Source: Spirochaetota bacterium (GTDB taxonomy: Bacteria > Spirochaetota > UBA4802 > JAGODF01). Taken from it: DNA of 64,000 nucleotides. Positions 197-37,413 of the stretch are shown in pieces. The position numbers were made by a program, and so were the translations under genes. Numbering within the stretch: the first letter of the stretch is position 1; each line of letters starts with the position of its first letter. The stretch covers positions 110,155-174,154 of the forward strand of contig DAIUCD010000005.1 in the NCBI GenBank assembly GCA_036846345.1. The letters run 5' to 3'. The notes under the pieces were generated by a model that made no database searches, was not told where the DNA came from, and worked only from the letters and a program-made list of their open reading frames with translations.

Positions 197-715
197 TTAA
201 ATCACCTCCAGTATCACATTTTTTCTATCGTCGAAGGATTTTTCGAAATCCTCCACCTTAAGTCGGACGGGTTTGATCTGGTCTGCCGTGAAGGCTTCCT
301 TCATCTTCTTGACCATGGCCTCCACCTCGTCTAGTCCGGTTATGAGTCGCCAGTCGTATTCCAGAAGGCGGTTGTTGTCATCCTGGGTTATCTGGGCCCT
401 GGAAAAGGAGGCGCTGGTGGTGTAATCAGCGTTTTTAACCTTTTTGTATATCCTTTCCAGAACGGTGTTGAGGGAATCCAGGTCGGAAAGGGCGCTTTTA
501 TCCCCTTTCTGAACGGTTTCACTCATGACAGCGCTGATGTCCCTTTTAAGGGTCAGAAGCCGTTCTGCAGTGAAGTTGCGTATGATCCGATCCGCCTCAT
601 ACATGGCACCCTTTTCGAAGTATCCTGTAAAGCCGGGAACCTTGGCCAGCAGCTTGTCTACGAAGTCCCTGCTGCCATCCAGCCGTTTTTTTACATTATC
701 AAGATCCGGTTGCAT
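197..715 (-). CDS. hypothetical protein, immediately upstream of the SPFH-like gene in the same operon
   Basis: 172-aa ORF; stop codon abuts the start of the downstream gene; no recognisable catalytic motif. Confidence 0.5.
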   Translation of the reverse strand: MQPDLDNVKKRLDGSRDFVDKLLAKVPGFTGYFEKGAMYEADRIIRNFTAERLLTLKRDISAVMSETVQKGDKSALSDLDSLNTVLERIYKKVKNADYTTSASFSRAQITQDDNNRLLEYDWRLITGLDEVEAMVKKMKEAFTADQIKPVRLKVEDFEKSFDDRKNVILEVI

Positions 716-1208
716 GACTACCTCCAGGCGTAATAATCAGGGGGAGGGTATCCACACCCTGTCAGCTTCCATTAGTATGTATACTTTCCTAAGAGTTACT
801 CCTTTCGGGACTTCTGTCAAGTAAATAATGGGGATTTTAATGCAAGGGAAGTCAGAGGGTAAGTTAGACACATGGCCTCAATGCCGTCATATTTCTGACA
901 GGGACAGGCTAAGCTCCTGAACTGGCGTACGGACTCGCCTTATGGAGGCTATGATTTCTCACAAACTCCTGTAAATGGTTCCTGCATATTCATCATTTAA
1001 CCGTCAGATGCCAGCGATAAATGCATTCAGGGGCAGGCGGAGAGATTTTCATGAATTATTTACTAAACATTTTGAGCCAATGTGTCGATACTTGGAACAG
1101 GAGCTGTTCATCCTGCGCTGGAAGTCTTTCATGATCGTGATGCCCCCGAGGGTGCAAGGGAGTATTGGGCGGCTTTGATTTCCCGGGGAAACGGCAATAG
1201 GGGGATGC

Positions 1209-3284
1209 ATGAGGTTTTCTATACAGGATATCAAACTCAGTATTCGTGCCAAATTGTTGGTCGGTTATATCGCTATCGGTCTTTTCCTGTATCTCGCTCT
1301 TGCTGTCGTGGGCTATTATACCGCCAGCAGCATCATCAGCAGTTCGATTACAAACGATCTGACGCATATTACAGACAACCTGCTTAATCTCTGTAAAACC
1401 ACCTATGATTTGAATCAGAGGACAGTCATCAATAATCTAAAGGTGGCGGATTATTTCGTTCGGGGTAAGGCCAGTATTGCCCCCCTCATCAACATCTCCA
1501 TGAAAATTGAAAACCAGGAAACGGGGACGGTTGCGGAAAAACGGATACCGTCCCTGAGAATAGGCGGATCTGACATGGCCTACAATTACGAACTGGTGGA
1601 TCGCATCACTGAGATGTGCGGGGGAACGGTGACCCTGTTCCAGAGGATTGAGGGGCCCAACGGACTGTTGCGCATATCCACCAGTGTGAAGCGGAACGAC
1701 GGTTCGAGGGCTGTCGGCACCTATATTCCGGAAAACTCCCCTGTGTATCAATCCATCATGAGGGGTGAGGAATACCATGGAGCAGCTTACGTGGTGAATA
1801 ACTGGTATATTACGGCTTACCGGCCTATTAAGGCCGGAGGTATCATCATCGGCGCCGTTTTTGTCGGGGTGAAACAGTCGGAACTAGACATACTGAGAGG
1901 TTCAATTATTGCCAACAGGATCGGTGAGAGGGGATTCGCGTCGGTGATAGACAATCACAAAAATTCCCGGGGACTGATGGTGATCCACCCGCACAGGGAG
2001 GGAAAAAACGTCTACGAAACCAAAGATGCCGACGGAATACCCTACGTAAAGCAGATGCTGGAGCGAAAAAACGGCCTCACCCGGCACTACCTTGCGGACG
2101 AAAAAGGCGAAACGCGGGAACGGCTCCTTTCGTACCGTTATCTGAAAGAGATGGACTGGCTTATCGTAGCTGAAGCCGATGTCGAGGAGATGTACTCCTC
2201 GCTGGGTACGCTGCGCAAACTCATGCTGTTCATCAGTGTCATTGCGGCCATCGTCATAGCTTTTGTCAGCCTTCATCTGTCCCGATCCTTCCAGATCGTG
2301 GTCGATGCCATGAGGAATCGCCTGAATCAGATGAAGGATGGACACTTTGAGGAAAAATTGACGGAAACCATAACAAACCGCGGGGACGAATTCGGGGAGA
2401 TGGCGGTTCATTTCAATCAGCTTATCGAGAACATCAGGGAAGTGCTGAAGAAGAATATAGAAAGCATCGAAGTGCTTTCCCGCTCCATTCAGGATCTGAC
2501 CGTGACCTCCAATGAGGTATCGACCACATCGAATCAGCAGGCCGCCTCAGTGAAGGAAATCGTCAGCACCATGGAGGATTCGGACCAGCTCTCCAAAAAG
2601 GTGGCGGCGCAGATTTCAGAAGTGGCGCGGATTGCCATGCGCAACCGGGAGCTGGTGGAGCAGGGTTACGTGCAGATAACGGGAAACATGGAAAAGATGG
2701 ACGAGATAAACCTGAGCAACACCGAGATGATGTCCAGCATCAGCAATCTGGGGGAACGAATCGAAAGCATCGGGGAAGTGCTGAAACTCATAAACAGCAT
2801 AGCCGATCAGACTAAAATCATAGCTTTTAATGCGGAGCTGGAGGCTTCGGCTGCCGGAGAGGCTGGTAAGAACTTCCAGGTCGTCGCCTCGGAGGTAAGA
2901 AGGCTTGCCGATAGTACCATGAAGGCTACGGCCGAGATCAGGGGCAGGATACAGGAAGTACAGGATTCCTCCCGAAAACTTGGTGTGTCTTCGGACATGG
3001 CCAATGTTCGTATCCGCGAGGGATACGAGTATACTCTGAAGGTAAAGGGTATCTTCGGCGACATACAGACTTCGTCGGAGGTTTCTGCCCGGTCCTCCGA
3101 ACAGATTGTGATGCTTGTGAAGGAACAGGTGTCAGCCTTCGAGCAGATACTCATTACCCTGCGTCAGATATCGGAATCGATAGATTATCTTACAATATCC
3201 ACAAAATCCACCAGCGGTGCGGCGGAAAGCCTCCAGGGCATCAGTATCGAGCTGCGCAAGCTCATGGAACACTACACCGTATAG
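1209..3284 (+). CDS. methyl-accepting chemotaxis protein with periplasmic Cache-like sensor, HAMP and MCP signalling domain
   Basis: N-terminal TM helix, second TM around residue 330, C-terminal MCP signature (IAFNAELEASAAGEAGKNFQVVASEVRRLADST). Confidence 0.9.
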   Translation: MRFSIQDIKLSIRAKLLVGYIAIGLFLYLALAVVGYYTASSIISSSITNDLTHITDNLLNLCKTTYDLNQRTVINNLKVADYFVRGKASIAPLINISMKIENQETGTVAEKRIPSLRIGGSDMAYNYELVDRITEMCGGTVTLFQRIEGPNGLLRISTSVKRNDGSRAVGTYIPENSPVYQSIMRGEEYHGAAYVVNNWYITAYRPIKAGGIIIGAVFVGVKQSELDILRGSIIANRIGERGFASVIDNHKNSRGLMVIHPHREGKNVYETKDADGIPYVKQMLERKNGLTRHYLADEKGETRERLLSYRYLKEMDWLIVAEADVEEMYSSLGTLRKLMLFISVIAAIVIAFVSLHLSRSFQIVVDAMRNRLNQMKDGHFEEKLTETITNRGDEFGEMAVHFNQLIENIREVLKKNIESIEVLSRSIQDLTVTSNEVSTTSNQQAASVKEIVSTMEDSDQLSKKVAAQISEVARIAMRNRELVEQGYVQITGNMEKMDEINLSNTEMMSSISNLGERIESIGEVLKLINSIADQTKIIAFNAELEASAAGEAGKNFQVVASEVRRLADSTMKATAEIRGRIQEVQDSSRKLGVSSDMANVRIREGYEYTLKVKGIFGDIQTSSEVSARSSEQIVMLVKEQVSAFEQILITLRQISESIDYLTISTKSTSGAAESLQGISIELRKLMEHYTV

Positions 3285-3382
3285 GCATGTTTTTTGGGCA
3301 TCGAAACCGTTACAGCTCCGGTAGGAAGATGTATTTGGGGTCGGGTTCTTCTTCAGTAAAAGTCTGCACGGACATTACTGAA

Positions 3383-4417
3383 TCATTCGTGCCGGACAAC
3401 ATGCAGGGAGTGGATCTGCCCGTATTTAGTGCCCGGAGGAACTTCCACCGGCACCTTTTTCATATTCTTCCAATAAAAAAGACCTCCGTCGGATGCCAAT
3501 GAGACGCTGCACCCCAGGTAGATATCCCCATTGACGGCAAACAGGGAACTGGCGGAAAGCTCCTTTTCCGCAAGAGGGAAGCGGGTCCCGTTTTTCCAGT
3601 AGAAGGTACCTGGTCCCTCCACAAGCAGATAGAGGTCTTTCCCGGTGCTGTATAGGTAACGTATTTCCGCGCCCTGGATGAAATCGACCCGCTTGCCGTT
3701 TTTCCAGTAGCAGGCGGTTTTATTACCGGCGCTATCAGACCAGTTGCCGGTGATGTAGGTATCCCGTCCAACAAGGTAAAGGTCCCGGAAGGCCGTGTAG
3801 CTCGCCCCGGCGGGTTTGGGGAGATTTACCCGGATGCCATTGCGTAGATAGAAGTAATGAAAGGATTCCTTTCGGGTGGTGTGGGACCCGAGGATATGCA
3901 CGGTGTTGCCGACTACAATGAGGGAGTATACGGTGGGATTAACCGCGCCTTCCGGAAGCCGGATATCGACCCGCTTGCCGTTTTTCCAGTAACAGGCGGT
4001 TTTCCTCCAATCCTTCTCGTAGGAACCGCCGATGTAGATGTCGTCCCCCTGAAGAAAGAGCGCATTGGCCTCCCCGAGGACGCTTTTGGGGGGCAGGCTG
4101 AGCAAATGCCTCCTGGTGTTTTTCCAGTAGCAGGGGGATTCGAGATGATAACCTTCCCGCAAACACTTTCCGATGATGTGAACGTCCTTTCCCCGGGGTA
4201 AAATCCTGATCGCCTCGGCTCCTTTGCCGAGGTCCACACGTCTGCCGTTTTTCCAATAACAGGCGGTCCTGCTGCCCTTTGCATCCAGGTAATAGCCGGT
4301 CAGATAGACGTCCGGATCCGGCCCGGGAGCGGCCGGAAGGCCGTTCAGGAGGAGAATGAGGGCTGTCAGGGCGGTCGTTAGAATAACCGGTAGCAGGAGT
4401 TGACTTTTTCGGCTCAT
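3383..4417 (-). CDS. secreted repeat protein with seven ~45-aa 'C/F-YWKNG-xR-V-D/L' repeats (predicted beta-propeller-like)
   Basis: Signal peptide MSRKSQLLLPVILTTALTALILLL; seven copies of the CYWKNGKRVDL/FYWKNGTRFPL motif, each followed by a V-Y-x-x-G segment. Confidence 0.7.
   Translation of the reverse strand: MSRKSQLLLPVILTTALTALILLLNGLPAAPGPDPDVYLTGYYLDAKGSRTACYWKNGRRVDLGKGAEAIRILPRGKDVHIIGKCLREGYHLESPCYWKNTRRHLLSLPPKSVLGEANALFLQGDDIYIGGSYEKDWRKTACYWKNGKRVDIRLPEGAVNPTVYSLIVVGNTVHILGSHTTRKESFHYFYLRNGIRVNLPKPAGASYTAFRDLYLVGRDTYITGNWSDSAGNKTACYWKNGKRVDFIQGAEIRYLYSTGKDLYLLVEGPGTFYWKNGTRFPLAEKELSASSLFAVNGDIYLGCSVSLASDGGLFYWKNMKKVPVEVPPGTKYGQIHSLHVVRHE
3585..4270. repeat. intragenic DNA repeats (~30 nt near-identical segments at ~3685-3721, 3967-4003, 4239-4270, plus degenerate copies) encoding the protein repeats
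   Basis: 'cgcttgccgtttttccagta(a/g)caggcggtttt' seen three times at ~275-280 bp spacing. Confidence 0.7.
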
Positions 4418-4587
4418 GGATTAGGCCTCTGTATTTTTTGGGTTTGGATTCCGCGTTTTAAAGAAGTGTTTTATGCAATAATGGGGGTGATGGGTATGAA
4501 TATCAAATCATTTTTCCCGGGGACCGTACCTTTTGACGGTTCGCGAACCTGTGGTTATCATCTGCATAAGGGGATGGGCCAGTTAGA

Positions 4588-5415
4588 TTATCCCGGGAGG
4601 CGAAGCTTGTCGATTTCACCGATTATGTATTCCCACACCGGCGGCCAGGCGCGGGTGAAGAAATGGTCCCGGGCCTGACTGATTTCCCGAAGGGAGATGC
4701 CGTATTCCCGGGCCTTGGCACGGGTCTCCTCCAGGGGATACCAGTGATCCTCCACCGCCAGGAGTATGTCCGTGCGGGATGCCTCCTTTTGGAGCAGGTT
4801 GAAGGCGTTGTGCCCCGGGATAAAGAGGTTTTCCAGAAAGGAGCCGATCTGCAGTTCCCCGGACTTCCCGTCCATATAGCGCCGCAGGTTCATTTCTCTC
4901 CAGTAATCCCCATCCATCCAGCGGCTGTCGTTCAGGTGTTCACTGATGACGTCTGTCTTGCCTGCCCGTAGAGCCAGGATGTCGTTGAACTCCCGGATAT
5001 TACCCTCCGCGTAGAGATACTCCAGGGAGCGGCGGGAGTCAAGCACCGGCGCCACCAGGAAGAAGCGGAGGAAGCTCTCTTTATCCGCGGCGTACTGCAG
5101 CAGGGCGTTGGCCCCGGCGCTGTGCCCTATACCCACGAAGGGGAGTCCGGTGAGGCCGTTTTTCGCCAACAGATGATCGACGTCCCGGAGGGCCAGGGAT
5201 ATCTCCATCTGGCCGCCGGAGGCGCCGTGGCCCCGGGGATTGAAGAGGACCACGGAGATTCCCCGTCTCAGAAATTCTTCTCGGGGGAAGCGGTACATCT
5301 GGAAACTGCCTCCCATGCAGGGCCAGAAGAGAACACCGGCCCGGGGTTTATTGGCAGCAAGCACATCCGCTTCGATTTTCGTTCCGTCAAAGGATAAAAA
5401 AAGGTTTCCCGTCAT
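4588..5415 (-). CDS. alpha/beta-fold hydrolase
   Basis: GHSAG nucleophile-elbow motif (GIGHSAGANAL), length 275 aa. Confidence 0.8.
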   Translation of the reverse strand: MTGNLFLSFDGTKIEADVLAANKPRAGVLFWPCMGGSFQMYRFPREEFLRRGISVVLFNPRGHGASGGQMEISLALRDVDHLLAKNGLTGLPFVGIGHSAGANALLQYAADKESFLRFFLVAPVLDSRRSLEYLYAEGNIREFNDILALRAGKTDVISEHLNDSRWMDGDYWREMNLRRYMDGKSGELQIGSFLENLFIPGHNAFNLLQKEASRTDILLAVEDHWYPLEETRAKAREYGISLREISQARDHFFTRAWPPVWEYIIGEIDKLRLPG

Positions 5416-5600
5416 AAAGAAATCCGCCTGTGTCTGATCTCATCCCAATCCGTTCCCGGCAGGGCATGATTGATGATTGACCCCCATACCCGGGTATCGT
5501 TTATGAGTCCCTGAAAGAAGGGCTATAGCAGGGGGAAGGGGAGTAAAGCACTTTTTTCCGTGGCACAGGAGGAGGCCGGTGTTCAACCGTGAGAAAACAG

Positions 5601-5630
5601 TTGACTGGACGTCTTCAGTTAGGGTAGAAT
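5601..5630 (+). promoter_or_regulatory. putative sigma70 promoter (TTGACT-18nt-TAGAAT) upstream of the DUF2652-like gene
   Basis: ttgactggacgtcttcagttagggtagaat, ~110 bp upstream of the start at 5738. Confidence 0.4.
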
Positions 5631-5737
5631 ACGGTATTCCCGGACTGATGATTAAGAGAGACAGCAGGGATCGGGGTTAAACAGGGCATTATTCAAAAAA
5701 ACGGCGATAGGAATCAGGATAATCCTGACTTTGATCC

Positions 5738-6505
5738 ATGGAACAGAAAGCGATTTTTATCATCCTAGACATCAGCGGTTATACCCGCTTCATGCTGTCC
5801 AAGGAGAAGCGGGCGCTGGCCCATGCCCAGATCATCATCTCCGAGCTGCTGGAGGAGGTGCTGAAGCATGTGGAGCTGCCGATGTTCGTCGCCAAGCTGG
5901 AGGGGGACGCCATATTCCTTTACGCAACGGAGGAGGGATTGGACCATTTTTCCCTCGCCATGAGGGCCTTCGTGGGGGAAAGGCTCCTGCTCTTCTTTGA
6001 CGTCTTTTATGCCCGCCTTGTTGATATCCGGGGACACATGGCCTCCTGCAACTGCGGCGGCTGCCGCAATGCCGACAAGCTCCGCATCAAGGCCGTCATC
6101 CACAGCGGGATGGCGCTCTTCTACCGCATAGGCCGCTTCGAGGAGGTGGCGGGACAGGATGTCATCCTGGTCCACCGTCTTTTGAAGAACTCTGTGCCCT
6201 CTAGGGAATACATCCTGATGACTAAGGAAGCCTACCGGGAGATCACCTTTCCCTGCAGGCTTCCCTTTACCGAGCATCGCGAAAATTACGAGGACGTGGG
6301 GGATGTTAAGGCCTTCGTCTTCATTCCCCCCTCCCGGGACGAGGAGCTGGACCGCTGCCTGGCCCGGTTTCATGAGGAGGAATCCGCATTAATGCGAGGC
6401 CTTAAGAAATTGAAGCATGTCGGTGTCGTCTTCTCCAAGTATCTCCTTCCTGTTTCTCTCAAGGTCCGCCGGTTGCGGCCTCTGAGAAATCTCAAAGAAG
6501 AATAG
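5738..6505 (+). CDS. DUF2652-like protein (distant class III nucleotidyl-cyclase-like fold)
   Basis: N-terminus IFIILDISGYTRFM resembles the cyclase metal-binding strand; Cys cluster CNCGGC. Confidence 0.5.
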   Translation: MEQKAIFIILDISGYTRFMLSKEKRALAHAQIIISELLEEVLKHVELPMFVAKLEGDAIFLYATEEGLDHFSLAMRAFVGERLLLFFDVFYARLVDIRGHMASCNCGGCRNADKLRIKAVIHSGMALFYRIGRFEEVAGQDVILVHRLLKNSVPSREYILMTKEAYREITFPCRLPFTEHRENYEDVGDVKAFVFIPPSRDEELDRCLARFHEEESALMRGLKKLKHVGVVFSKYLLPVSLKVRRLRPLRNLKEE

Positions 6506-6764
6506 GCGATCTTATCCCCCGAATGTGGGTTCTGGTCAAAATCTCTAGCGTTTAAGGGCATTTTGTACTCGTACCGGGCTGGAAAGCTGTTCATCGATCA
6601 ACATTACAAAAACAGGAACGCATTTCGTGCAACCCCTGCTTCGGGAGATCCTATTCTCTGGATCTGCTGCGCTCAACGGTAAGATTGCTGCCGCTTGCTT
6701 GACTCGGACAAAATGGGGAATAAACAAAGGCCTTGCGATGCAAAAGGAAGAGATCGGTCACGCC

Positions 6765-7577
6765 TCAGATATCGGGAAACACAGGTTTCTTCTTCTGAAG
6801 GAATGCCGACACGCCATGAAAACACTCTCCTGAGATGATGAGAGCAACCGCGCGGTCCGATTCCTCGGCCAGGGACTCGTTGTAGGTCCGGTTCCTGCTC
6901 TCCCGCAGGAGCGCCAGGGAGTGGCGGATCGCCTGCGGGCCGTTGCCGGCGATGGCCCGGGCCATCGCAACAGCTTCCCCGAGCGCAAGGCCGCGTTCGC
7001 ATATCCTGCTTACCAGTCCCATAGACAGGGCCTCCTCGGCTCCTACACGGCGTCCTGTGAGCACCAGGTCGGCGGCCCTGGAGGCTCCCACGAGACGCGG
7101 AAGCGCGGCGCCGCCGCCGTGATCCGGCATGAGGCCCAGGCTCACCTCGGAATAGCAGATAAAGGCACCCCGGACCATGACCCTGAGGTCACACCGTACA
7201 GCCAGCTCCGCACCTCCGCCGAAGGCGTTTCCGTTCAGGGCGGCGATGGTCGGCACAGGGAGCGAGCAGAAAGCGTCGATGACCTCCCGTATCCTGCTGA
7301 TGGCCTCTCTCGCCGGGACCTCGTCCTTTGCAGTGACTGCGTCGATGAGTCGTTTCATCATGGGATTGTCCGGCTGGACATCGAAACCCGCGCTAAAAGA
7401 CCTGTCGCCGCTTCCGGTGATGACGATTGCCCGAGGGGTGGCTTTGCGAAGTTCCCTGGTAACCTCCTCCAGAAGGGTCAGCATCCTGTCGTTAAAGGAG
7501 TGGTGCCTGTCGGGGCGGTCGAGGGTGACTACCGCGATGTTATCAATTCGATCAAGGGTGATGTTTCCGTCGTTCAT
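6765..7577 (-). CDS. enoyl-CoA hydratase/isomerase (crotonase family)
   Basis: ALNGNAFGGGAELAVRCDLRV oxyanion-hole/catalytic region; 270 aa. Confidence 0.9.
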   Translation of the reverse strand: MNDGNITLDRIDNIAVVTLDRPDRHHSFNDRMLTLLEEVTRELRKATPRAIVITGSGDRSFSAGFDVQPDNPMMKRLIDAVTAKDEVPAREAISRIREVIDAFCSLPVPTIAALNGNAFGGGAELAVRCDLRVMVRGAFICYSEVSLGLMPDHGGGAALPRLVGASRAADLVLTGRRVGAEEALSMGLVSRICERGLALGEAVAMARAIAGNGPQAIRHSLALLRESRNRTYNESLAEESDRAVALIISGECFHGVSAFLQKKKPVFPDI

Positions 7578-10224: not shown

Positions 10225-11046
10225 ATGAAATCACCACCAGTCGAAGATAAGGCATGTATTGATAAAATGAAACCCATAAGAACACTGCCGATCCTACTGA
10301 TAATCCTCCTGGCGGCCTGCGCCACTGTGCCGCCCCCGCCTGTTCCCGAAAGCGAGCAGAGCTCTCTGATCGGCATGGCACTGGTCATCAGCAGCGAGGC
10401 GTATCAGCCGGACAGTCCCTCGGAGGTTCTCTTTATCCGGCTGGAGGAGGGCGATAAATCGTATTTAAGCGTTAATGAGGTCATCAGATCCCATTATGCC
10501 AGAGAGGGGCAGTATTACCTGCTGAACGCGAAGCCCGGGCGTTACATCGCCGTGGCAGCCTGCAGCAGAAGAGGGAAAGGAAAGGGGGACGGCGGGGCAT
10601 CCGCCGTAAAGCAGATGTATTATCTCCCTTTAAAAGTGATGCAGCTTTCCGATGTATCCCTGAAGGAGGGGGAAGCCGCTTTCATGGGCAAATACATGGT
10701 TCATCTGCCCTCCGGGTTTAAATTTTCCACCGGTCTGGCCAATCCGGATGAGGCCCAGTCTTTTTACTGCAAACGGTTCCAGCCGGATCAGCTCGTTCCC
10801 GGCACGGACGGCTATATCAAGGGGGTAATAAAGGGTATCGTCCGCCGAGAAGGAGACGCCGCCCATGCCGTTAAGCTTCAGGAATCTCATAAAGATGCCA
10901 AAAGCGAAATGGAATTCTGGCAAAAGGCCAAGGATCATTTCCGGGGGGATTCCCGGCAGAGAAAGGAATACGGGGATATCGTAGAGAAGAACCAGGTCTG
11001 GCTGAAGATCATCGACCGGCATCTGGATAAACTGAAAGGTCGATAA
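10225..11046 (+). CDS. lipoprotein of unknown function (alternative start at 10267)
   Basis: Signal peptide with lipobox LLAAC; no recognisable enzymatic motif. Confidence 0.6.
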   Translation: MKSPPVEDKACIDKMKPIRTLPILLIILLAACATVPPPPVPESEQSSLIGMALVISSEAYQPDSPSEVLFIRLEEGDKSYLSVNEVIRSHYAREGQYYLLNAKPGRYIAVAACSRRGKGKGDGGASAVKQMYYLPLKVMQLSDVSLKEGEAAFMGKYMVHLPSGFKFSTGLANPDEAQSFYCKRFQPDQLVPGTDGYIKGVIKGIVRREGDAAHAVKLQESHKDAKSEMEFWQKAKDHFRGDSRQRKEYGDIVEKNQVWLKIIDRHLDKLKGR

Positions 11047-32148: not shown

Positions 32149-35100
32149 GTGCCATCATCCCTGCCAGGCCAGGAGCATGTCATGGACATCACCGGCGAGA
32201 TCATCCAAAAGCGTTACAGGATCACCAGCCCCATTGCTGAGGGAGGCATGAGTTATGTCTTCATGGCTGAGGATCTGGAGAAGACCGGAAGCACCGTGGC
32301 CGTGAAGATCCTGAAACGGAAGGGGACATCAAGAAGGATCGAGGATGTGATTCGGTTCCATTCTGAAGCAACCACAATTTCCCGCATAAACCATCCCAAT
32401 ATCATTAAAATCCATGAGGTCGGGGAGACCGACTCTCCCTCGATGCCGGGGATGCACTATATCGTGATGGAGTACATCCGCGGAGGAAATCTCTTCGAGA
32501 TGGTATCTCGGAAGAGGTTTCCAGATTGGAAGACCGCCCTCGTGATCATTTCAGGCCTTTGCCGTGCTCTGAGCCATATCCACGATAACGGTATCATACA
32601 CCGGGACATCAAGCCGGGAAACATCATGATTTTACAGAATGGAGGCATGCTGAAGACGGATCAGATAAAACTGATCGATTTCGGTCTGGCTCAACTGAAG
32701 GAATTTGCGGACATGGGAGATATCGAGGAGGTCTTAGGAACTTTTAGCTACATGTCTCCCGAGCAGACGGGACTTGTGAAGAAGAACGTAGATGAGCGAA
32801 GCGATCTCTATTCACTCGGCGTCGTCTTCTACCAGCTTCTCACCGGTGAACTTCCTTTCAAGGGTGAGGATGTGAGTTCTCTTATCCACCAGCATGTGGC
32901 CCAGATGGCCCGGCCACCGGCGGATCTAAACCGCGATTTGCCCGTAGTGGTAAGCAAGATGGTGATGAAACTCATGGAAAAGGACCAGGAGAAGCGCTAT
33001 CAGAGCGCGGAGGGGCTGCTGAAGGACGTAGAAAAGGTTTTAAACGACCGCTATGATTTCATGCCGGGGCAGGAGGACAGGAGAGTAAGGCTAACCTTTC
33101 GGACAGGACTCATCGGACGCGAGCAGGAGATGAAGAGCCTTAGGGATCTGGCGGACCGGGCCATAAGCGGCGAGGGCCGGGCGGTCTTTATTGGGGGCGA
33201 AGCCGGGAGAGGGAAAACCCGTCTGCTGGAGGAACTGAAAGGATATGTCATCTCCCTTGGCGGTGTTTTCCTGACAGGAAAGTGTTTTGCCGGCGAGAAT
33301 AAGACGCCATACGGACCTTTCCGTGATCAGCTGAGTTTCTATCTCAAGCTTTTCAACAGGTATACGGAAAACAAGAAACAGGCTGTAAAAAAACAGATAC
33401 AGAACCGGATTGGCGGACTCGGCAGGGTCATTCTCCAGCTGAGCAAGGAAATGGAAGTTCTGCTGGGCGATTGTCCTGAGCTGGTAGGTCTTGAGCCGGA
33501 CCGTGAAAACGAGCGGTTCCTCATCGCCTCGGGTCAATTTTTTCAACATATCGCCGAAATCGAAAAGCTCATGGTCCTCGTCTTCGATGACCTCCAGTGG
33601 TCGGATGAGGGCAGCTTTACCCTGATGAGGGAGATTATAGGACAGTTCGATAGGTCTCGGATACTCATCGTGGGCACTTACCGGGATAATGAACTCTACG
33701 AGTATCACACACTCCAGAAGATGATCAACCTTTACGTCCATGACAAGCGAGTCGAGTTGATGAGCCTGGGGCTATTTGACCGGCATAAAATGGAAGGCTT
33801 TATCTCCAGTTTGCTCTTCACGGACGATGAGTCCATAAAGGATATCTCCGAGTTCATACTGAACAAGAGCCGGGGAAATCCATTTTTCGCCCTGGAGATA
33901 CTGAAGCAGCTGGTTAATGAAAATGCACTCTTTTATGCGGGAAACCGTTGGAATATCAGTTATGATGTCTTGGGGACCATCGAGATATCCCCTACTGTAA
34001 TCGATGTTATCCTGAACCGCATATCCCAGCTGGATGAACGGGAGATGAAGGTTCTCTCACTCGCTTCTGTGATCGGAAGAAGGTTTACATTGGATCTGCT
34101 TTTTAGGCTGCTGGATTACGAAAAGGGAGATATCGTCAGTATGATCGACAAGGCCCTGCATCTGCAGTTCCTGGAAACGGAGCCTGATGAAAAAGGGATA
34201 TTATATTTCGCTCATGATAGGATCAAGGAAGCCTTTTATTCCCGGCTCAGGACGGAGGAGAGGAAGCAGAGTCATCTTCATATTGCAAAAATGATGGAGC
34301 GCAATTACAAAGAGGATGAGGAATCCCTCCTTTTCGATCTTGCACATCATTATATTGAGGGTAATAATCCTGAGAAATCCCTTACTTACGCCTTCCCCGC
34401 AGGTGTAAAGGCAAAAGAAAAATATGCCAACGAGGAGGCGATCAAGTATTATTCCCTCGTGCTCAAGCTGCTTGGGATATCTCTCTCGGGGCTTGCAGAA
34501 GACAAGAGGGAGATGTGGATTCGGACTAGAGAGGACCTGGGAGAAATCTATCAGACGATCGGAAAAAACGACGAGGCAATCGCTCTTTTCAACGAGCTTC
34601 TCGATAATTCTATCGAACTGCTGAAAAAGGCCGACTACAACAAAAACATAAGCCGTGCCTATTTCAAAAAAGGGGATTGGAAAAATTGCGAGGAATACGG
34701 CCGTCGGGGTCTCGAAATCCTGGGGGAAAGACTGCCAACTGGTACCTTGAGGGTCGTTCCGAGTGCCCTGAGAGAGCTGTTCGTCCATTTCGTTCAGGAG
34801 CTGTTCCACTCCCTCTTTACCGGCATGAGGAATAGGGATAAGAAAGATCAAATTATCGTCTGGTTCTATCTTACGCTCAACTGGATGTATATCCTGAGCG
34901 ATATAAAGAAATTCATCCGCTCCATCATGCGAATGCTCAACATCTCCCAACGGCGACTGGGCATATCCCGGGAGTTGGGAATCAGCTTGGGGGCCTATGC
35001 CAGCCTGCAGATGGCGTTGCCCCTCTTCGCAAGATCCATCCGCAATCAAAACCGGGCCATTGAGATCAAGAAGCTCTTTAAGGATGAGTGGGGAATAGCC

Positions 35101-37413
35101 CAGTCCCTGCAGTTCCTGGGTTTCTGTTATGAGTGGAAGGGGGATTATTCTAAAAGTCTTGAGTGCTTTGAACAGAGCAGCGCCATTTTCCGCAAGATCG
35201 GGGATCTCCGGGAGCTTGGCATGACCCTGAACGGGATGATACATGTCCAGTATTTCCTGGGTAACTACAACAGCGCCCAGAAGATCAATCATGAATATTA
35301 CGATATCGTTGGACGCTCACGGGATAATTACGGGATCAGCGTGTCGATGATTTACAGCGCCCAGTACAATATTGAAAGGGGCAATTACGAGGGGGCGGAG
35401 GAGCTGGTCAGAAACGCCAGGGATTTGAGCAAGAAGCATGATATCACCTTTGTCTACTGCGAATCCCTCATCAATGAAGGCCGGCTCTTACAGGAAACCG
35501 GGCAACTGGAGGATGCTGTTATCTGTCTTGAGGAGGCACGGGAGATCATCGAGAAAAATGATTTTCTCAAGCAGTATACGGTTTATCTCTATCCCTACCT
35601 TGCCGCGGCTTATCTGAAACAATGGGCCGAGGACAGGAAGGATCTCAGCCCTGGGGAGAAGCTGGCCCTTCGTCTGAAAGCCGAGAAGACCGTTAAAAAG
35701 GCTCTCCGGATCACGAAATCATGGCCAACCCACTACGGTACGGCCCTGAGAATAGCCGGAAAATATTATGCCGCCATGCAAAGGGACAAGCGAGCGGAAA
35801 AATATCTCCTAAGGGCTATCAATCACTGTGCCGAATATCTCCGAAAATACGAACTGGGGATGGGATTCTTCGAGTACGGCAGATACCTGGACCATACGGG
35901 CAGGCTGGAGGCGGCCCGGGGCAGACTGGAATCGGCCTATCGGATATTCAAGGAGATAGGATCCCGGGTTAATCTTCAGAAAACTGCGGAGATGATGGGG
36001 GTCAACTACGAGGAGGAGTCCACCACGGTACAAAGACTTGTGGACAAACAGAAGATTTCATCCATAATCAAGGTGAGCCAGGATATCAGTTCCATCCTCA
36101 ACCTGGATGAGTTGCTGGAGCATGTCATGGCGAAGGCCATAGAGGTGACCGGGGCCCAGCGCGCCTACCTCCTCATCAAAAATGATGAAGGCCTGCTTCA
36201 GCTCAAGGCCTCGAAGAACATCATCAATCCTGACAGGGAGGAATACTCCAGCAGTATTGTCGATGAGGTCATTAAAAGCGGGAACCCGGTAATTACGCTC
36301 AACGCCAGGGAAGAAAGGTTTGCTGAGATGAAAAGCGTTGTGGAATATGATCTGAAGTCCGTTCTCTGCATACCCATACGGCATCATGAGGAAATCATAG
36401 GGGTATGCTATCTTGACAATCAGCTGTCCAGCGGCGTATTTACCCAGGAAGACGCCAGCCTTTTGAGCGTCTTCATGACACAGGCGGCTATTGCCATCGA
36501 GAATGCCTCCTTTTATCAGAGACTGGAGACGCGAGTGGAGGAGAGAACACAGGAACTGGCCAGGAAGACATCGGAACTGGCACGGCGATCCAGGGAACTG
36601 AGTATAACCAATGAGGAGCTGATCGAGGCATATTCCAAGCTGAACGTAACTTATGAGGAGCTGAACAAGGCTTACAAGACCATTAAAGAGGATCTGGCCC
36701 TGGCCAAAAGAATACAGGAGAACATCCTGCCCGGCCGTATGGAACAGTCCGGAAAACTGGAGACGGAGGTTATATACCGTCCCATGGGGGAAGTCGGGGG
36801 AGATATTTACGATATCTTCGAGGTGAGACCCGGGGTCGTCAGAATATTCCTGGCTGACGCGACGGGGCATGGGGTACAGGCTGCCCTGGTGACCATGATC
36901 ATCAAGGGGGAATTTGAAAAGATAAAGATGAGCGATGATCAGCCTTCGATTCTTCTGGAACAGATGAACAGCACCTTCGTCGAGACTTACAAGACACTGA
37001 AGATGTTCTTTACCTGCATAGTGTTGGACGTTGACTATAATGAGCATAGTATAAATTATGCCTCTGCCGGTCATCCCACGCAATACATGGTGACCGGGGC
37101 GGGTTTAAGGGAATTGCCACGGACCGGCCGCATGGTGGGTCTGATCGAGGTGGTCTCCTACAGGAATGTTCAGATGGATTTCTGTGAGGGGGATAAGCTC
37201 ATTCTTTTTACCGACGGTATTTTCGAGGAGTTCAACAGCCGGGGAGAGGCCTATGGTGAGGACCGCATGAAAGGGATCATTCAGGATAAACGGAATTTGA
37301 GAGTGCAGGGGATCATCGAAGAGATATTCCAGGATCTGCAGGGTTTTATGGGAAATGACCGCCCTGTCAACGACAACGACGACATCACCGTGATCGGTCT
37401 TCAATACCTGTAG
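32149..37413 (+). CDS. multidomain signalling protein: Ser/Thr protein kinase – AAA(+)/STAND ATPase – TPR – GAF – coiled coil – PP2C/SpoIIE phosphatase
   Basis: Kinase motifs HRDIKPGN / DFG / SPE; Walker A GEAGRGKT; GAF near residues 1290-1440; C-terminal FLADATGHG…SAGHP…FTDG PP2C motifs. Start could be the GTG at 32149 or the ATG at 32182. Confidence 0.85.
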   Translation: MPSSLPGQEHVMDITGEIIQKRYRITSPIAEGGMSYVFMAEDLEKTGSTVAVKILKRKGTSRRIEDVIRFHSEATTISRINHPNIIKIHEVGETDSPSMPGMHYIVMEYIRGGNLFEMVSRKRFPDWKTALVIISGLCRALSHIHDNGIIHRDIKPGNIMILQNGGMLKTDQIKLIDFGLAQLKEFADMGDIEEVLGTFSYMSPEQTGLVKKNVDERSDLYSLGVVFYQLLTGELPFKGEDVSSLIHQHVAQMARPPADLNRDLPVVVSKMVMKLMEKDQEKRYQSAEGLLKDVEKVLNDRYDFMPGQEDRRVRLTFRTGLIGREQEMKSLRDLADRAISGEGRAVFIGGEAGRGKTRLLEELKGYVISLGGVFLTGKCFAGENKTPYGPFRDQLSFYLKLFNRYTENKKQAVKKQIQNRIGGLGRVILQLSKEMEVLLGDCPELVGLEPDRENERFLIASGQFFQHIAEIEKLMVLVFDDLQWSDEGSFTLMREIIGQFDRSRILIVGTYRDNELYEYHTLQKMINLYVHDKRVELMSLGLFDRHKMEGFISSLLFTDDESIKDISEFILNKSRGNPFFALEILKQLVNENALFYAGNRWNISYDVLGTIEISPTVIDVILNRISQLDEREMKVLSLASVIGRRFTLDLLFRLLDYEKGDIVSMIDKALHLQFLETEPDEKGILYFAHDRIKEAFYSRLRTEERKQSHLHIAKMMERNYKEDEESLLFDLAHHYIEGNNPEKSLTYAFPAGVKAKEKYANEEAIKYYSLVLKLLGISLSGLAEDKREMWIRTREDLGEIYQTIGKNDEAIALFNELLDNSIELLKKADYNKNISRAYFKKGDWKNCEEYGRRGLEILGERLPTGTLRVVPSALRELFVHFVQELFHSLFTGMRNRDKKDQIIVWFYLTLNWMYILSDIKKFIRSIMRMLNISQRRLGISRELGISLGAYASLQMALPLFARSIRNQNRAIEIKKLFKDEWGIAQSLQFLGFCYEWKGDYSKSLECFEQSSAIFRKIGDLRELGMTLNGMIHVQYFLGNYNSAQKINHEYYDIVGRSRDNYGISVSMIYSAQYNIERGNYEGAEELVRNARDLSKKHDITFVYCESLINEGRLLQETGQLEDAVICLEEAREIIEKNDFLKQYTVYLYPYLAAAYLKQWAEDRKDLSPGEKLALRLKAEKTVKKALRITKSWPTHYGTALRIAGKYYAAMQRDKRAEKYLLRAINHCAEYLRKYELGMGFFEYGRYLDHTGRLEAARGRLESAYRIFKEIGSRVNLQKTAEMMGVNYEEESTTVQRLVDKQKISSIIKVSQDISSILNLDELLEHVMAKAIEVTGAQRAYLLIKNDEGLLQLKASKNIINPDREEYSSSIVDEVIKSGNPVITLNAREERFAEMKSVVEYDLKSVLCIPIRHHEEIIGVCYLDNQLSSGVFTQEDASLLSVFMTQAAIAIENASFYQRLETRVEERTQELARKTSELARRSRELSITNEELIEAYSKLNVTYEELNKAYKTIKEDLALAKRIQENILPGRMEQSGKLETEVIYRPMGEVGGDIYDIFEVRPGVVRIFLADATGHGVQAALVTMIIKGEFEKIKMSDDQPSILLEQMNSTFVETYKTLKMFFTCIVLDVDYNEHSINYASAGHPTQYMVTGAGLRELPRTGRMVGLIEVVSYRNVQMDFCEGDKLILFTDGIFEEFNSRGEAYGEDRMKGIIQDKRNLRVQGIIEEIFQDLQGFMGNDRPVNDNDDITVIGLQYL

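Follow-up and report, generated by a model that had tools for sequence, protein, structure and literature searches.

The stretch of DNA analysed here (the window; 64,000 nucleotides of contig DAIUCD010000005.1 from a Spirochaetota bacterium) carries at 3383..4417, on the minus strand, a gene for a 344-aa protein made of seven tandem units around a YWKNG motif. The product is probably an exported, seven-bladed, Kelch-like β-propeller, and its likely role is non-catalytic binding in the envelope of this uncultured, anaerobic Spirochaetota bacterium. By its sequence it clearly belongs to what we term the YWKNG-repeat family (seven tandem units, ~350 aa in total), whose members, spread over hundreds of Bacteroidota genomes and also present in some Spirochaetota and Acidobacteriota, are annotated only as "hypothetical protein." Taken alone, the gene encodes a structurally ordinary repeat protein, and its DNA repeats are no mark of an unstable locus; mildly notable are the abundance of a family without a curated model and what may be a single micro-conversion tract shared by blades 3 and 5. 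Curation of the family as a Kelch-like seven-bladed propeller domain would better annotate many surface proteins and would also flag a candidate ligand-binding scaffold on Bacteroidota cell surfaces.

Repeat units, predicted fold and family

The gene and the parts of its product are located as follows.

3383..4417, minus strand: coding sequence of the 344-aa YWKNG-repeat protein (predicted β-propeller), ATG start, stop codon 3383-3385, from the open reading frame (ORF) call
4328..4417, minus strand: N-terminal export signal or signal-anchor, aa 1-30 (MSRKS, 19-aa hydrophobic helix and Pro-rich linker), from the sequence and the modelled helix at residues 8-25
4271..4312, minus strand: first β-strand DVYLTGYYL and loop, aa 36-49, the "DVYxxG" strand before the first motif, from the DSSP strand 36-44 and the family consensus
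4142..4270, minus strand: repeat unit 1, aa 50-92, beginning RTACYWKNGRRVDL
4004..4141, minus strand: repeat unit 2, aa 93-138, beginning ESPCYWKNTRRHLL
3863..4003, minus strand: repeat unit 3, aa 139-185, beginning KTACYWKNGKRVDI
3722..3862, minus strand: repeat unit 4, aa 186-232, with the degenerate motif, beginning FHYFYLRNGIRVNL
3614..3721, minus strand: repeat unit 5, aa 233-268, beginning KTACYWKNGKRVDF
3488..3613, minus strand: repeat unit 6, aa 269-310, beginning PGTFYWKNGTRFPL
3386..3487, minus strand: repeat unit 7, aa 311-344, beginning GGLFYWKNMKKVPV, with the terminal strand QIHSLHVV

The product is identical to protein P0001 in NCBI and the European Nucleotide Archive (ENA). An earlier note on this DNA had listed seven motifs, each with a V-Y-x-x-G segment, and all of them are present, starting at residues 53, 96, 142, 189, 236, 272, and 314 (start-to-start spacings of 43, 46, 47, 47, 36, and 42 aa). 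In each unit, which spans ~36-47 aa, a [C/F]Y[W/L][K/R]N motif comes first and a V-[Y/H]-x-x-G strand ~25-30 residues after it. Seven units were also counted in the window protein by a single-repeat hidden Markov model (HMM) built from other family members.

For structure prediction, an AlphaFold2 (AF2) model was computed from a 56-sequence alignment, with a predicted local distance difference test (pLDDT) value of 93.2 and a predicted template modelling (pTM) score of 0.87. After an N-terminal helix it contained 28 β-strands, arranged as seven groups of four. The earlier note had left the choice between a seven-bladed propeller and a solenoid; the seven four-stranded blades of the model predict a closed seven-bladed β-propeller. 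As judged from strand order and position in the repeat, the terminal strand QIHSLHVV would close the ring with the N-terminal strands. Foldseek comparison of the model retrieved generic propellers (TM scores of 0.33-0.54), with RSL-type lectins and LGI1 EPTP in the lead, and a PDB sequence search with the single window protein gave no match.

Each ~45-aa unit would supply the four strands of one blade. In this assignment "AxxIxV" would form the inner strand, "G-x-D-V-Y-x-x-G" the second, and "A-C-Y-W-K" the third, ending at a tight K-N-G turn, and "x-R-x-x-L" would form the outer strand. Because CYWKNG is thereby placed in the third strand and its turn, it would be a structural core element present once per blade. 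Seven units would then be a fixed requirement of the ring structure, not a variable number.

The extent of the family was assessed by several searches. A word-indexed search retrieved 228 homologues, nearly all of them "hypothetical proteins" of ~350 aa, with independent phmmer E values from 1e-60 to 1e-13 for more than 200 proteins. A family profile (A1) was then scanned over 1.84 billion representatives of clusters at 50% identity, of which 6,282, 13,124, and 25,743 matched at E ≤ 1e-30, 1e-10, and 1e-3, respectively. The window protein matched A1 over its full length (318 bits, E = 5.7e-90), a value that is partly circular because the protein is part of the profile. Genome loci, located with a degenerate DNA pattern that spans two neighbouring motifs, number at least 120; among the matches listed, ~105 belong to Bacteroidota (Chitinophagaceae, Sphingobacteriaceae, Flavobacteriia, and Cytophagales), 5 to Spirochaetota, 3 to Acidobacteriota, and 1 to Gammaproteobacteria. 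Members in Spirochaetota and Acidobacteriota are sporadic. The family consensus is seven times [A-C-Y-W-K-N-G-x4-L ... A-x-x-I-x-V-x-G-x-D-V-Y-x-x-G]. No paralogue was found elsewhere in the window, and no paper on the motif was found in the literature. The family is abundant and is without a Pfam or NCBIfam model, a solved structure, or literature.

In larger relatives the module is fused to Big_2, Cadherin-like, TIG, Big_5, Flg_new, and Por_Secre_tail domains, the last a sorting domain of the type IX secretion system (T9SS); these relatives are extracellular cell-surface proteins. Bacteroidota also carry tandem paralogue arrays, with two to four copies in 17 of the 119 loci among the matches listed (for example L028, L050, L038, and L017). 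Several matched stretches were seen in single giant Bacteroidota proteins, such as P0241 (1948 aa), P0356 (1551 aa), and P0368 (3044 aa, 14 matched stretches), and multi-stretch proteins of this kind often carry Big_2 or Cadherin-like domains together with T9SS sorting tails.

The relationship to named repeat families was examined with both the window protein and the family as a whole. The earlier statement that the protein could be assigned to no named family is borne out: Pfam gave no significant match (the best was Kelch_6, E = 0.056, 13.9 bits against a cut-off of 25.3), and NCBIfam gave none at E ≤ 10. Reg_prop (PF07494), which had been offered as a candidate, was absent at E ≤ 10 for both the protein and the consensus and did not occur among the 23 families matched by 56 members. 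The family profile, when compared with PDB sequences, matched the designed Kelch protein SAKe (6e-9) and Keap1 (5e-7), in register over ~240 positions. The artificial family consensus scored 31.1 bits on Kelch_6 and 28.4 bits on Kelch_2, above the respective Pfam cut-offs of 25.3 and 21.3, and the HMM consensus also passed NHL (22.7 bits), but only 3 of 56 real members reached Kelch_2 or Kelch_6, and hhalign against one Kelch sequence gave a probability of 17.5%. For these reasons the blades are described as Kelch-like and not as Pfam Kelch, whose gathering threshold lies above the score of the window protein. Kelch units of 44-56 aa form the four-stranded blades of a closed propeller, and an arrangement of this kind was found in the model. 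Among the Kelch signature residues, the hydrophobic strand, one Gly (≥90% in most blades), the Tyr, and the Trp are present, but the Tyr and Trp are adjacent, where Kelch has them ~6-7 residues apart, and the GG doublet is mostly reduced to a single G. Taken together, the sequence comparisons weakly suggest Kelch-like blades and a distant, uncurated branch of the β-propeller clan, distinct from the Pfam Kelch families.

Location and candidate roles

The protein is predicted to reside in the periplasm or at the outer surface, because it has an N-terminal hydrophobic helix, 84% of aligned relatives carry a lipobox Cys, and larger relatives are fused to surface domains. The N terminus reads MSRKS-QLLLPVILTTALTALILLL-NGLPAAPGPDP and is signal-peptide-like or anchor-like. 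The typical lipoprotein signal of the family is missing from the window protein, which has Leu27 in the lipobox column and no Cys before residue 53. A Treponemataceae homologue (P0031) likewise has a plain signal or anchor. The window protein is a diverged, non-lipidated family member, and most of its relatives are lipoproteins or T9SS-secreted surface proteins of Bacteroidota. Of the signal peptide proposed in the earlier note, the hydrophobic, signal-like N terminus holds; the protein would either stay anchored through an uncleaved signal or be set free by signal peptidase I.

With respect to function, all columns conserved in at least 60% of members are periodic blade positions, the initiator Met/Lys, or the lipobox Cys, and no blade-specific conserved polar, catalytic, or metal-site residue was found among these columns. 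This pattern argues for a non-catalytic scaffold. Two long variable loops per blade (one joining strands 2 and 3, the other leading from strand 4 into the following blade) would lie on one face and form a surface for a ligand or partner, as in Kelch propellers; the conserved tight turns (G-x-D and K-N-G) would, as deduced from strand order, lie on the opposite face. By analogy, we infer that the protein may serve as a non-catalytic binding module.

Several observations weigh against this reading. The N terminus has no clear A-x-A site, and Pro31 directly follows the best candidate cleavage site. The Kelch relationship is weak, given the Kelch_6 score of the window protein and the hhalign probability above. 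A ligand, partner, or phenotype is reported for no family member. The binding role draws on analogy because the genomic context is not conserved: none of the window neighbours recurs beside family members at the 119 loci among the matches listed, and the commonest neighbour cluster, a LytTR response regulator, is seen at 11 of them. Finally, the placement of the loops on the two faces is deduced from strand order alone.

A more far-reaching version may be put forward tentatively, as one that we regard as possible and somewhat doubtful: a distinct, uncurated propeller family of thousands of clusters, whose hypervariable top-face loops would make it a diversifying surface-recognition scaffold, and in whose present spirochaete copy a short conversion tract would keep the coding of the cores of blades 3 and 5 identical.

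The protein could instead be a carbohydrate-binding propeller lectin, in which the Tyr/Trp pair of each blade would build multivalent inter-blade sugar sites like those of RSL/AAL fucose lectins or of PLL-type lectins, and would bind glycans of the envelope, a host, or a substrate. The best Foldseek matches were Ralstonia RSL lectin variants (E 1e-7) and the fungal lectins AFL, AOL, and FleA, the protein is exported, relatives occur in surface proteins with adhesin-type Ig domains, and one Trp is conserved per blade. However, by the Kelch register the conserved Tyr and Trp would be blade-core residues of the third strand and not exposed, the conserved columns show no Arg/Glu/Trp triads of the fucose-lectin kind, and the similarity is at the level of the fold. 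A lectin is thus considered unlikely.

A propeller enzyme, with a catalytic site in the central channel or on the top face (a lactonase, lyase, or alkylating activity on the folds of CylK, 6-phosphogluconolactonase, or virginiamycin B lyase), appears less probable still. Such an enzyme might act with the product of the α/β-hydrolase gene that lies 170 bp upstream on the same strand (4588-5415), but a hydrolase neighbour was found beside 0 of 143 family genes in the 119 other loci among the matches listed. Moreover, the family has no blade-specific conserved polar or metal-binding residue, and identity to CylK-, lactonase-, and lyase-type enzymes is 9-14%, with Z scores equal to those of non-enzymatic propellers. 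The non-catalytic binding module is therefore preferred over both.

DNA repeats and unit number

The DNA features that bear on repeat identity and unit number are the following.

3680..3721: 42-nt block encoding KTACYWKNGKRVDF (unit 5), 40/42 identical to 3962-4003
3962..4003: 42-nt block encoding KTACYWKNGKRVDI (unit 3)
4229..4270: 42-nt block encoding RTACYWKNGRRVDL (unit 1), 32-33/42 against the other two blocks, core 24/25
4045..4049: C5 run, read as G5 on the coding strand, with one base fewer in assembly L123, from contig comparison

Near-identical DNA segments ~275-280 bp apart had been reported in the earlier note. Three copies of a 25-nt core, TGCCGTTTTTCCAGTAACAGGCGGT, were recovered with at most one mismatch, all confined to the 3383..4417 gene (0 matches in 100 shuffles), and the block spacings were revised to 282 and 267 nt, start to start. 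The block at 4229-4270 has 76% identity to the reference copy. Tandem Repeats Finder (TRF) detected no tandem DNA array.

A codon test was employed to compare the units. Codon usage was taken from 29 long ORFs of the window, and identical codons at identical degenerate amino acids were counted over the 14-aa motif block for all unit pairs. For 20 of the 21 pairs, codon identity was as predicted by codon usage, including the pairs of unit 1 with unit 3 (P = 0.15) and with unit 5 (P = 0.35). The remaining pair, units 3 and 5, shared 11 of 12 synonymous codons where 4.9 were expected (P = 2.7e-4; ~0.006 after correction for 21 pairs). Beyond the 14-aa/42-nt block, these two units have 27% amino acid identity and nucleotide identity at the background level; the units are otherwise 22-41% identical at the protein level. 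Because nearly all pairs show the expected codon identity and the rest of units 3 and 5 has diverged, the DNA repeats reflect protein constraint: the DNA identity is mostly imposed by conserved amino acids, and the 25-42-nt segments are mainly a coding footprint.

The divergence of units 3 and 5 outside the block rules out a recent whole-unit duplication, and with it the recent intragenic duplication that had been read from the DNA identity. Gene conversion, proposed alongside it, may account for a short tract between blades 3 and 5 (P = 2.7e-4 before correction), which may also be due to chance. General concerted evolution (homogenisation) of the blades was considered for the family and rejected: in 93 family genes from other genomes, the same-codon excess between blades was 1.11-fold, and 1 of the 93 reached P < 1e-3.

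Unit number was compared between assemblies and across the family. ENA contig L002 (ERZ724080) is 100% identical to the window across 4,042 bp, and in L001 (ERZ724083) the gene is identical to the window copy. In L123 (ERZ724081, 3.8× coverage), the sole difference in the gene is one base missing from the G5 run, which is probably a low-coverage error and possibly a real null allele. A 290-aa protein of 96% identity (P0002) was considered as a copy-number variant and rejected, as it is the same gene with the 1-nt G5-run deletion; its N terminus is the alternative reading frame produced by the L123 frameshift. The same seven-unit gene, with no unit-scale insertion or deletion, is thus present in assemblies from three samples, and these showed no sign of the assembly collapse that had been raised as a concern. 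In the indexed homologue search, no allele with another unit number was on record. With the repeat HMM, the modal count in the family was seven, seen in 72 of the 124 complete members from genomes and in 61 of the 120 homologues from metagenomes; the others mostly scored six, consistent with one degenerate unit escaping detection. The length-variable copy number suggested in the earlier note is not borne out by these counts. The note had itself said that a confident match to a known repeat family of invariant copy number would refute it, and at the family level, where the consensus exceeds the Kelch_6 and Kelch_2 cut-offs, the variable-copy idea fails.

That near-identical intragenic repeats recombine to shift blade number (a contingency gene), or mark a very recent duplication, is therefore very improbable and largely refuted: the three-copy core and the 40/42-nt pair with its excess of identical synonymous codons, which could mark a short conversion tract, speak for it, but the units are otherwise diverged in protein, form no TRF array, match the family mode, are the same seven in three samples, and show just the small same-codon excess family-wide, and recombination between the copies 282 nt apart would remove two blades, a loss that a closed ring cannot tolerate and for which no allele is on record.

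Genomic context and comparison with known propellers

Flanking signals and the gene upstream of the propeller gene are listed below.

4426..4429, minus strand: GAGG, resembling a Shine-Dalgarno site, 8 nt before the start codon, seen directly in the sequence
4478..4506, minus strand: σ70-like promoter match TTGATA-17-CATTAT in the 170-bp upstream gap, a consensus match only
4588..5415, minus strand: α/β-hydrolase gene, with the propeller gene 170 bp downstream

The promoter scan gave 3 sites over the region that it covered, where 1.9 would be expected, so that the match at 4478..4506 is not significant by itself. The propeller gene is convergent with a Cache-type chemoreceptor gene (1209..3284, plus strand), and no terminator was found by a scan of the convergent gap (3285-3382). 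Divergent from the pair of α/β-hydrolase and propeller genes is a gene for a DUF2652 protein (89 bits; 5738..6505, plus strand). A conserved operon partner was sought and rejected, the best candidate being the LytTR response regulator at its 11 of 119 loci, and the five spirochaete loci had no shared neighbours. The window comes from an anaerobe, and the pyruvate:ferredoxin oxidoreductase that it encodes has its nearest matches (72-73% identity) in metagenome-assembled genomes labelled "Spirochaetota bacterium."

Other features of the window were noted in passing. Over 383..7260, L001 differs from the window by 33 mismatches and no gaps, all within 1961..2219, the rest being 100% identical. 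These 259 bp encode part of the Cache sensor domain of the chemoreceptor (~12.7% divergence; 24 synonymous and 9 non-synonymous differences), and the patch looks like localised recombination or gene conversion, with a chemoreceptor paralogue or a different strain as donor, or like a chimeric assembly. Two ORFs, 197..715 (minus strand, 172 aa) and 10225..11046 (plus strand, 273 aa), had no Pfam match at E ≤ 1e-5; the former is also called as a gene on ENA contigs. A very long ORF with a GTG start lies at 32149..37413 (plus strand, 1754 aa).

Among known systems, the HAF repeat (TIGR02913, "probable extracellular repeat") is likewise a short, ~40-aa extracellular bacterial repeat. The artificial family consensus scored 26.3 bits on HAF_rpt against a cut-off of 22.65, over one of the seven units, but real family members reached at most 11 bits and the window protein had no NCBIfam match, which makes this a weak lead and not membership. 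YncE/BtuG-type propellers of Bacteroidota also have seven blades and ~340 aa; they are surface lipoproteins whose top face binds vitamin B12 as ligand. Identity to them is 10%, with no sequence-level match and a different repeat motif, and, unlike in that system, no BtuB/TonB-dependent transporter gene is adjacent here or conserved among relatives.

Propeller lectins (RSL, AAL/AFL, and PLL) resemble the window protein as exported β-propellers with one or two conserved Trp residues per blade, and gave the best Foldseek E values. They differ in that RSL and AAL are six-bladed, TM scores lie at 0.33-0.54, shared binding-site residues were not detected, and the conserved aromatics of the YWKNG family align with Kelch core positions.

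In comparison with Kelch propellers (Keap1 and SAKe), the window protein has seven blades where Kelch usually has six, the Kelch "Y-D-x-x-x-x-x-W" is shortened to a "Y-W-K-N-G" hairpin with Tyr and Trp side by side, a single Gly usually replaces the GG doublet, and the family is bacterial and exported or lipidated. Shared with Kelch are the four-stranded blades (~44-50 aa in Kelch), the order of elements (a hydrophobic inner strand, a Gly-containing "hYxxGG" strand, a strand with a conserved Tyr, and an aromatic residue), and long variable loops that would, by the strand order deduced here, likewise lie on one face.
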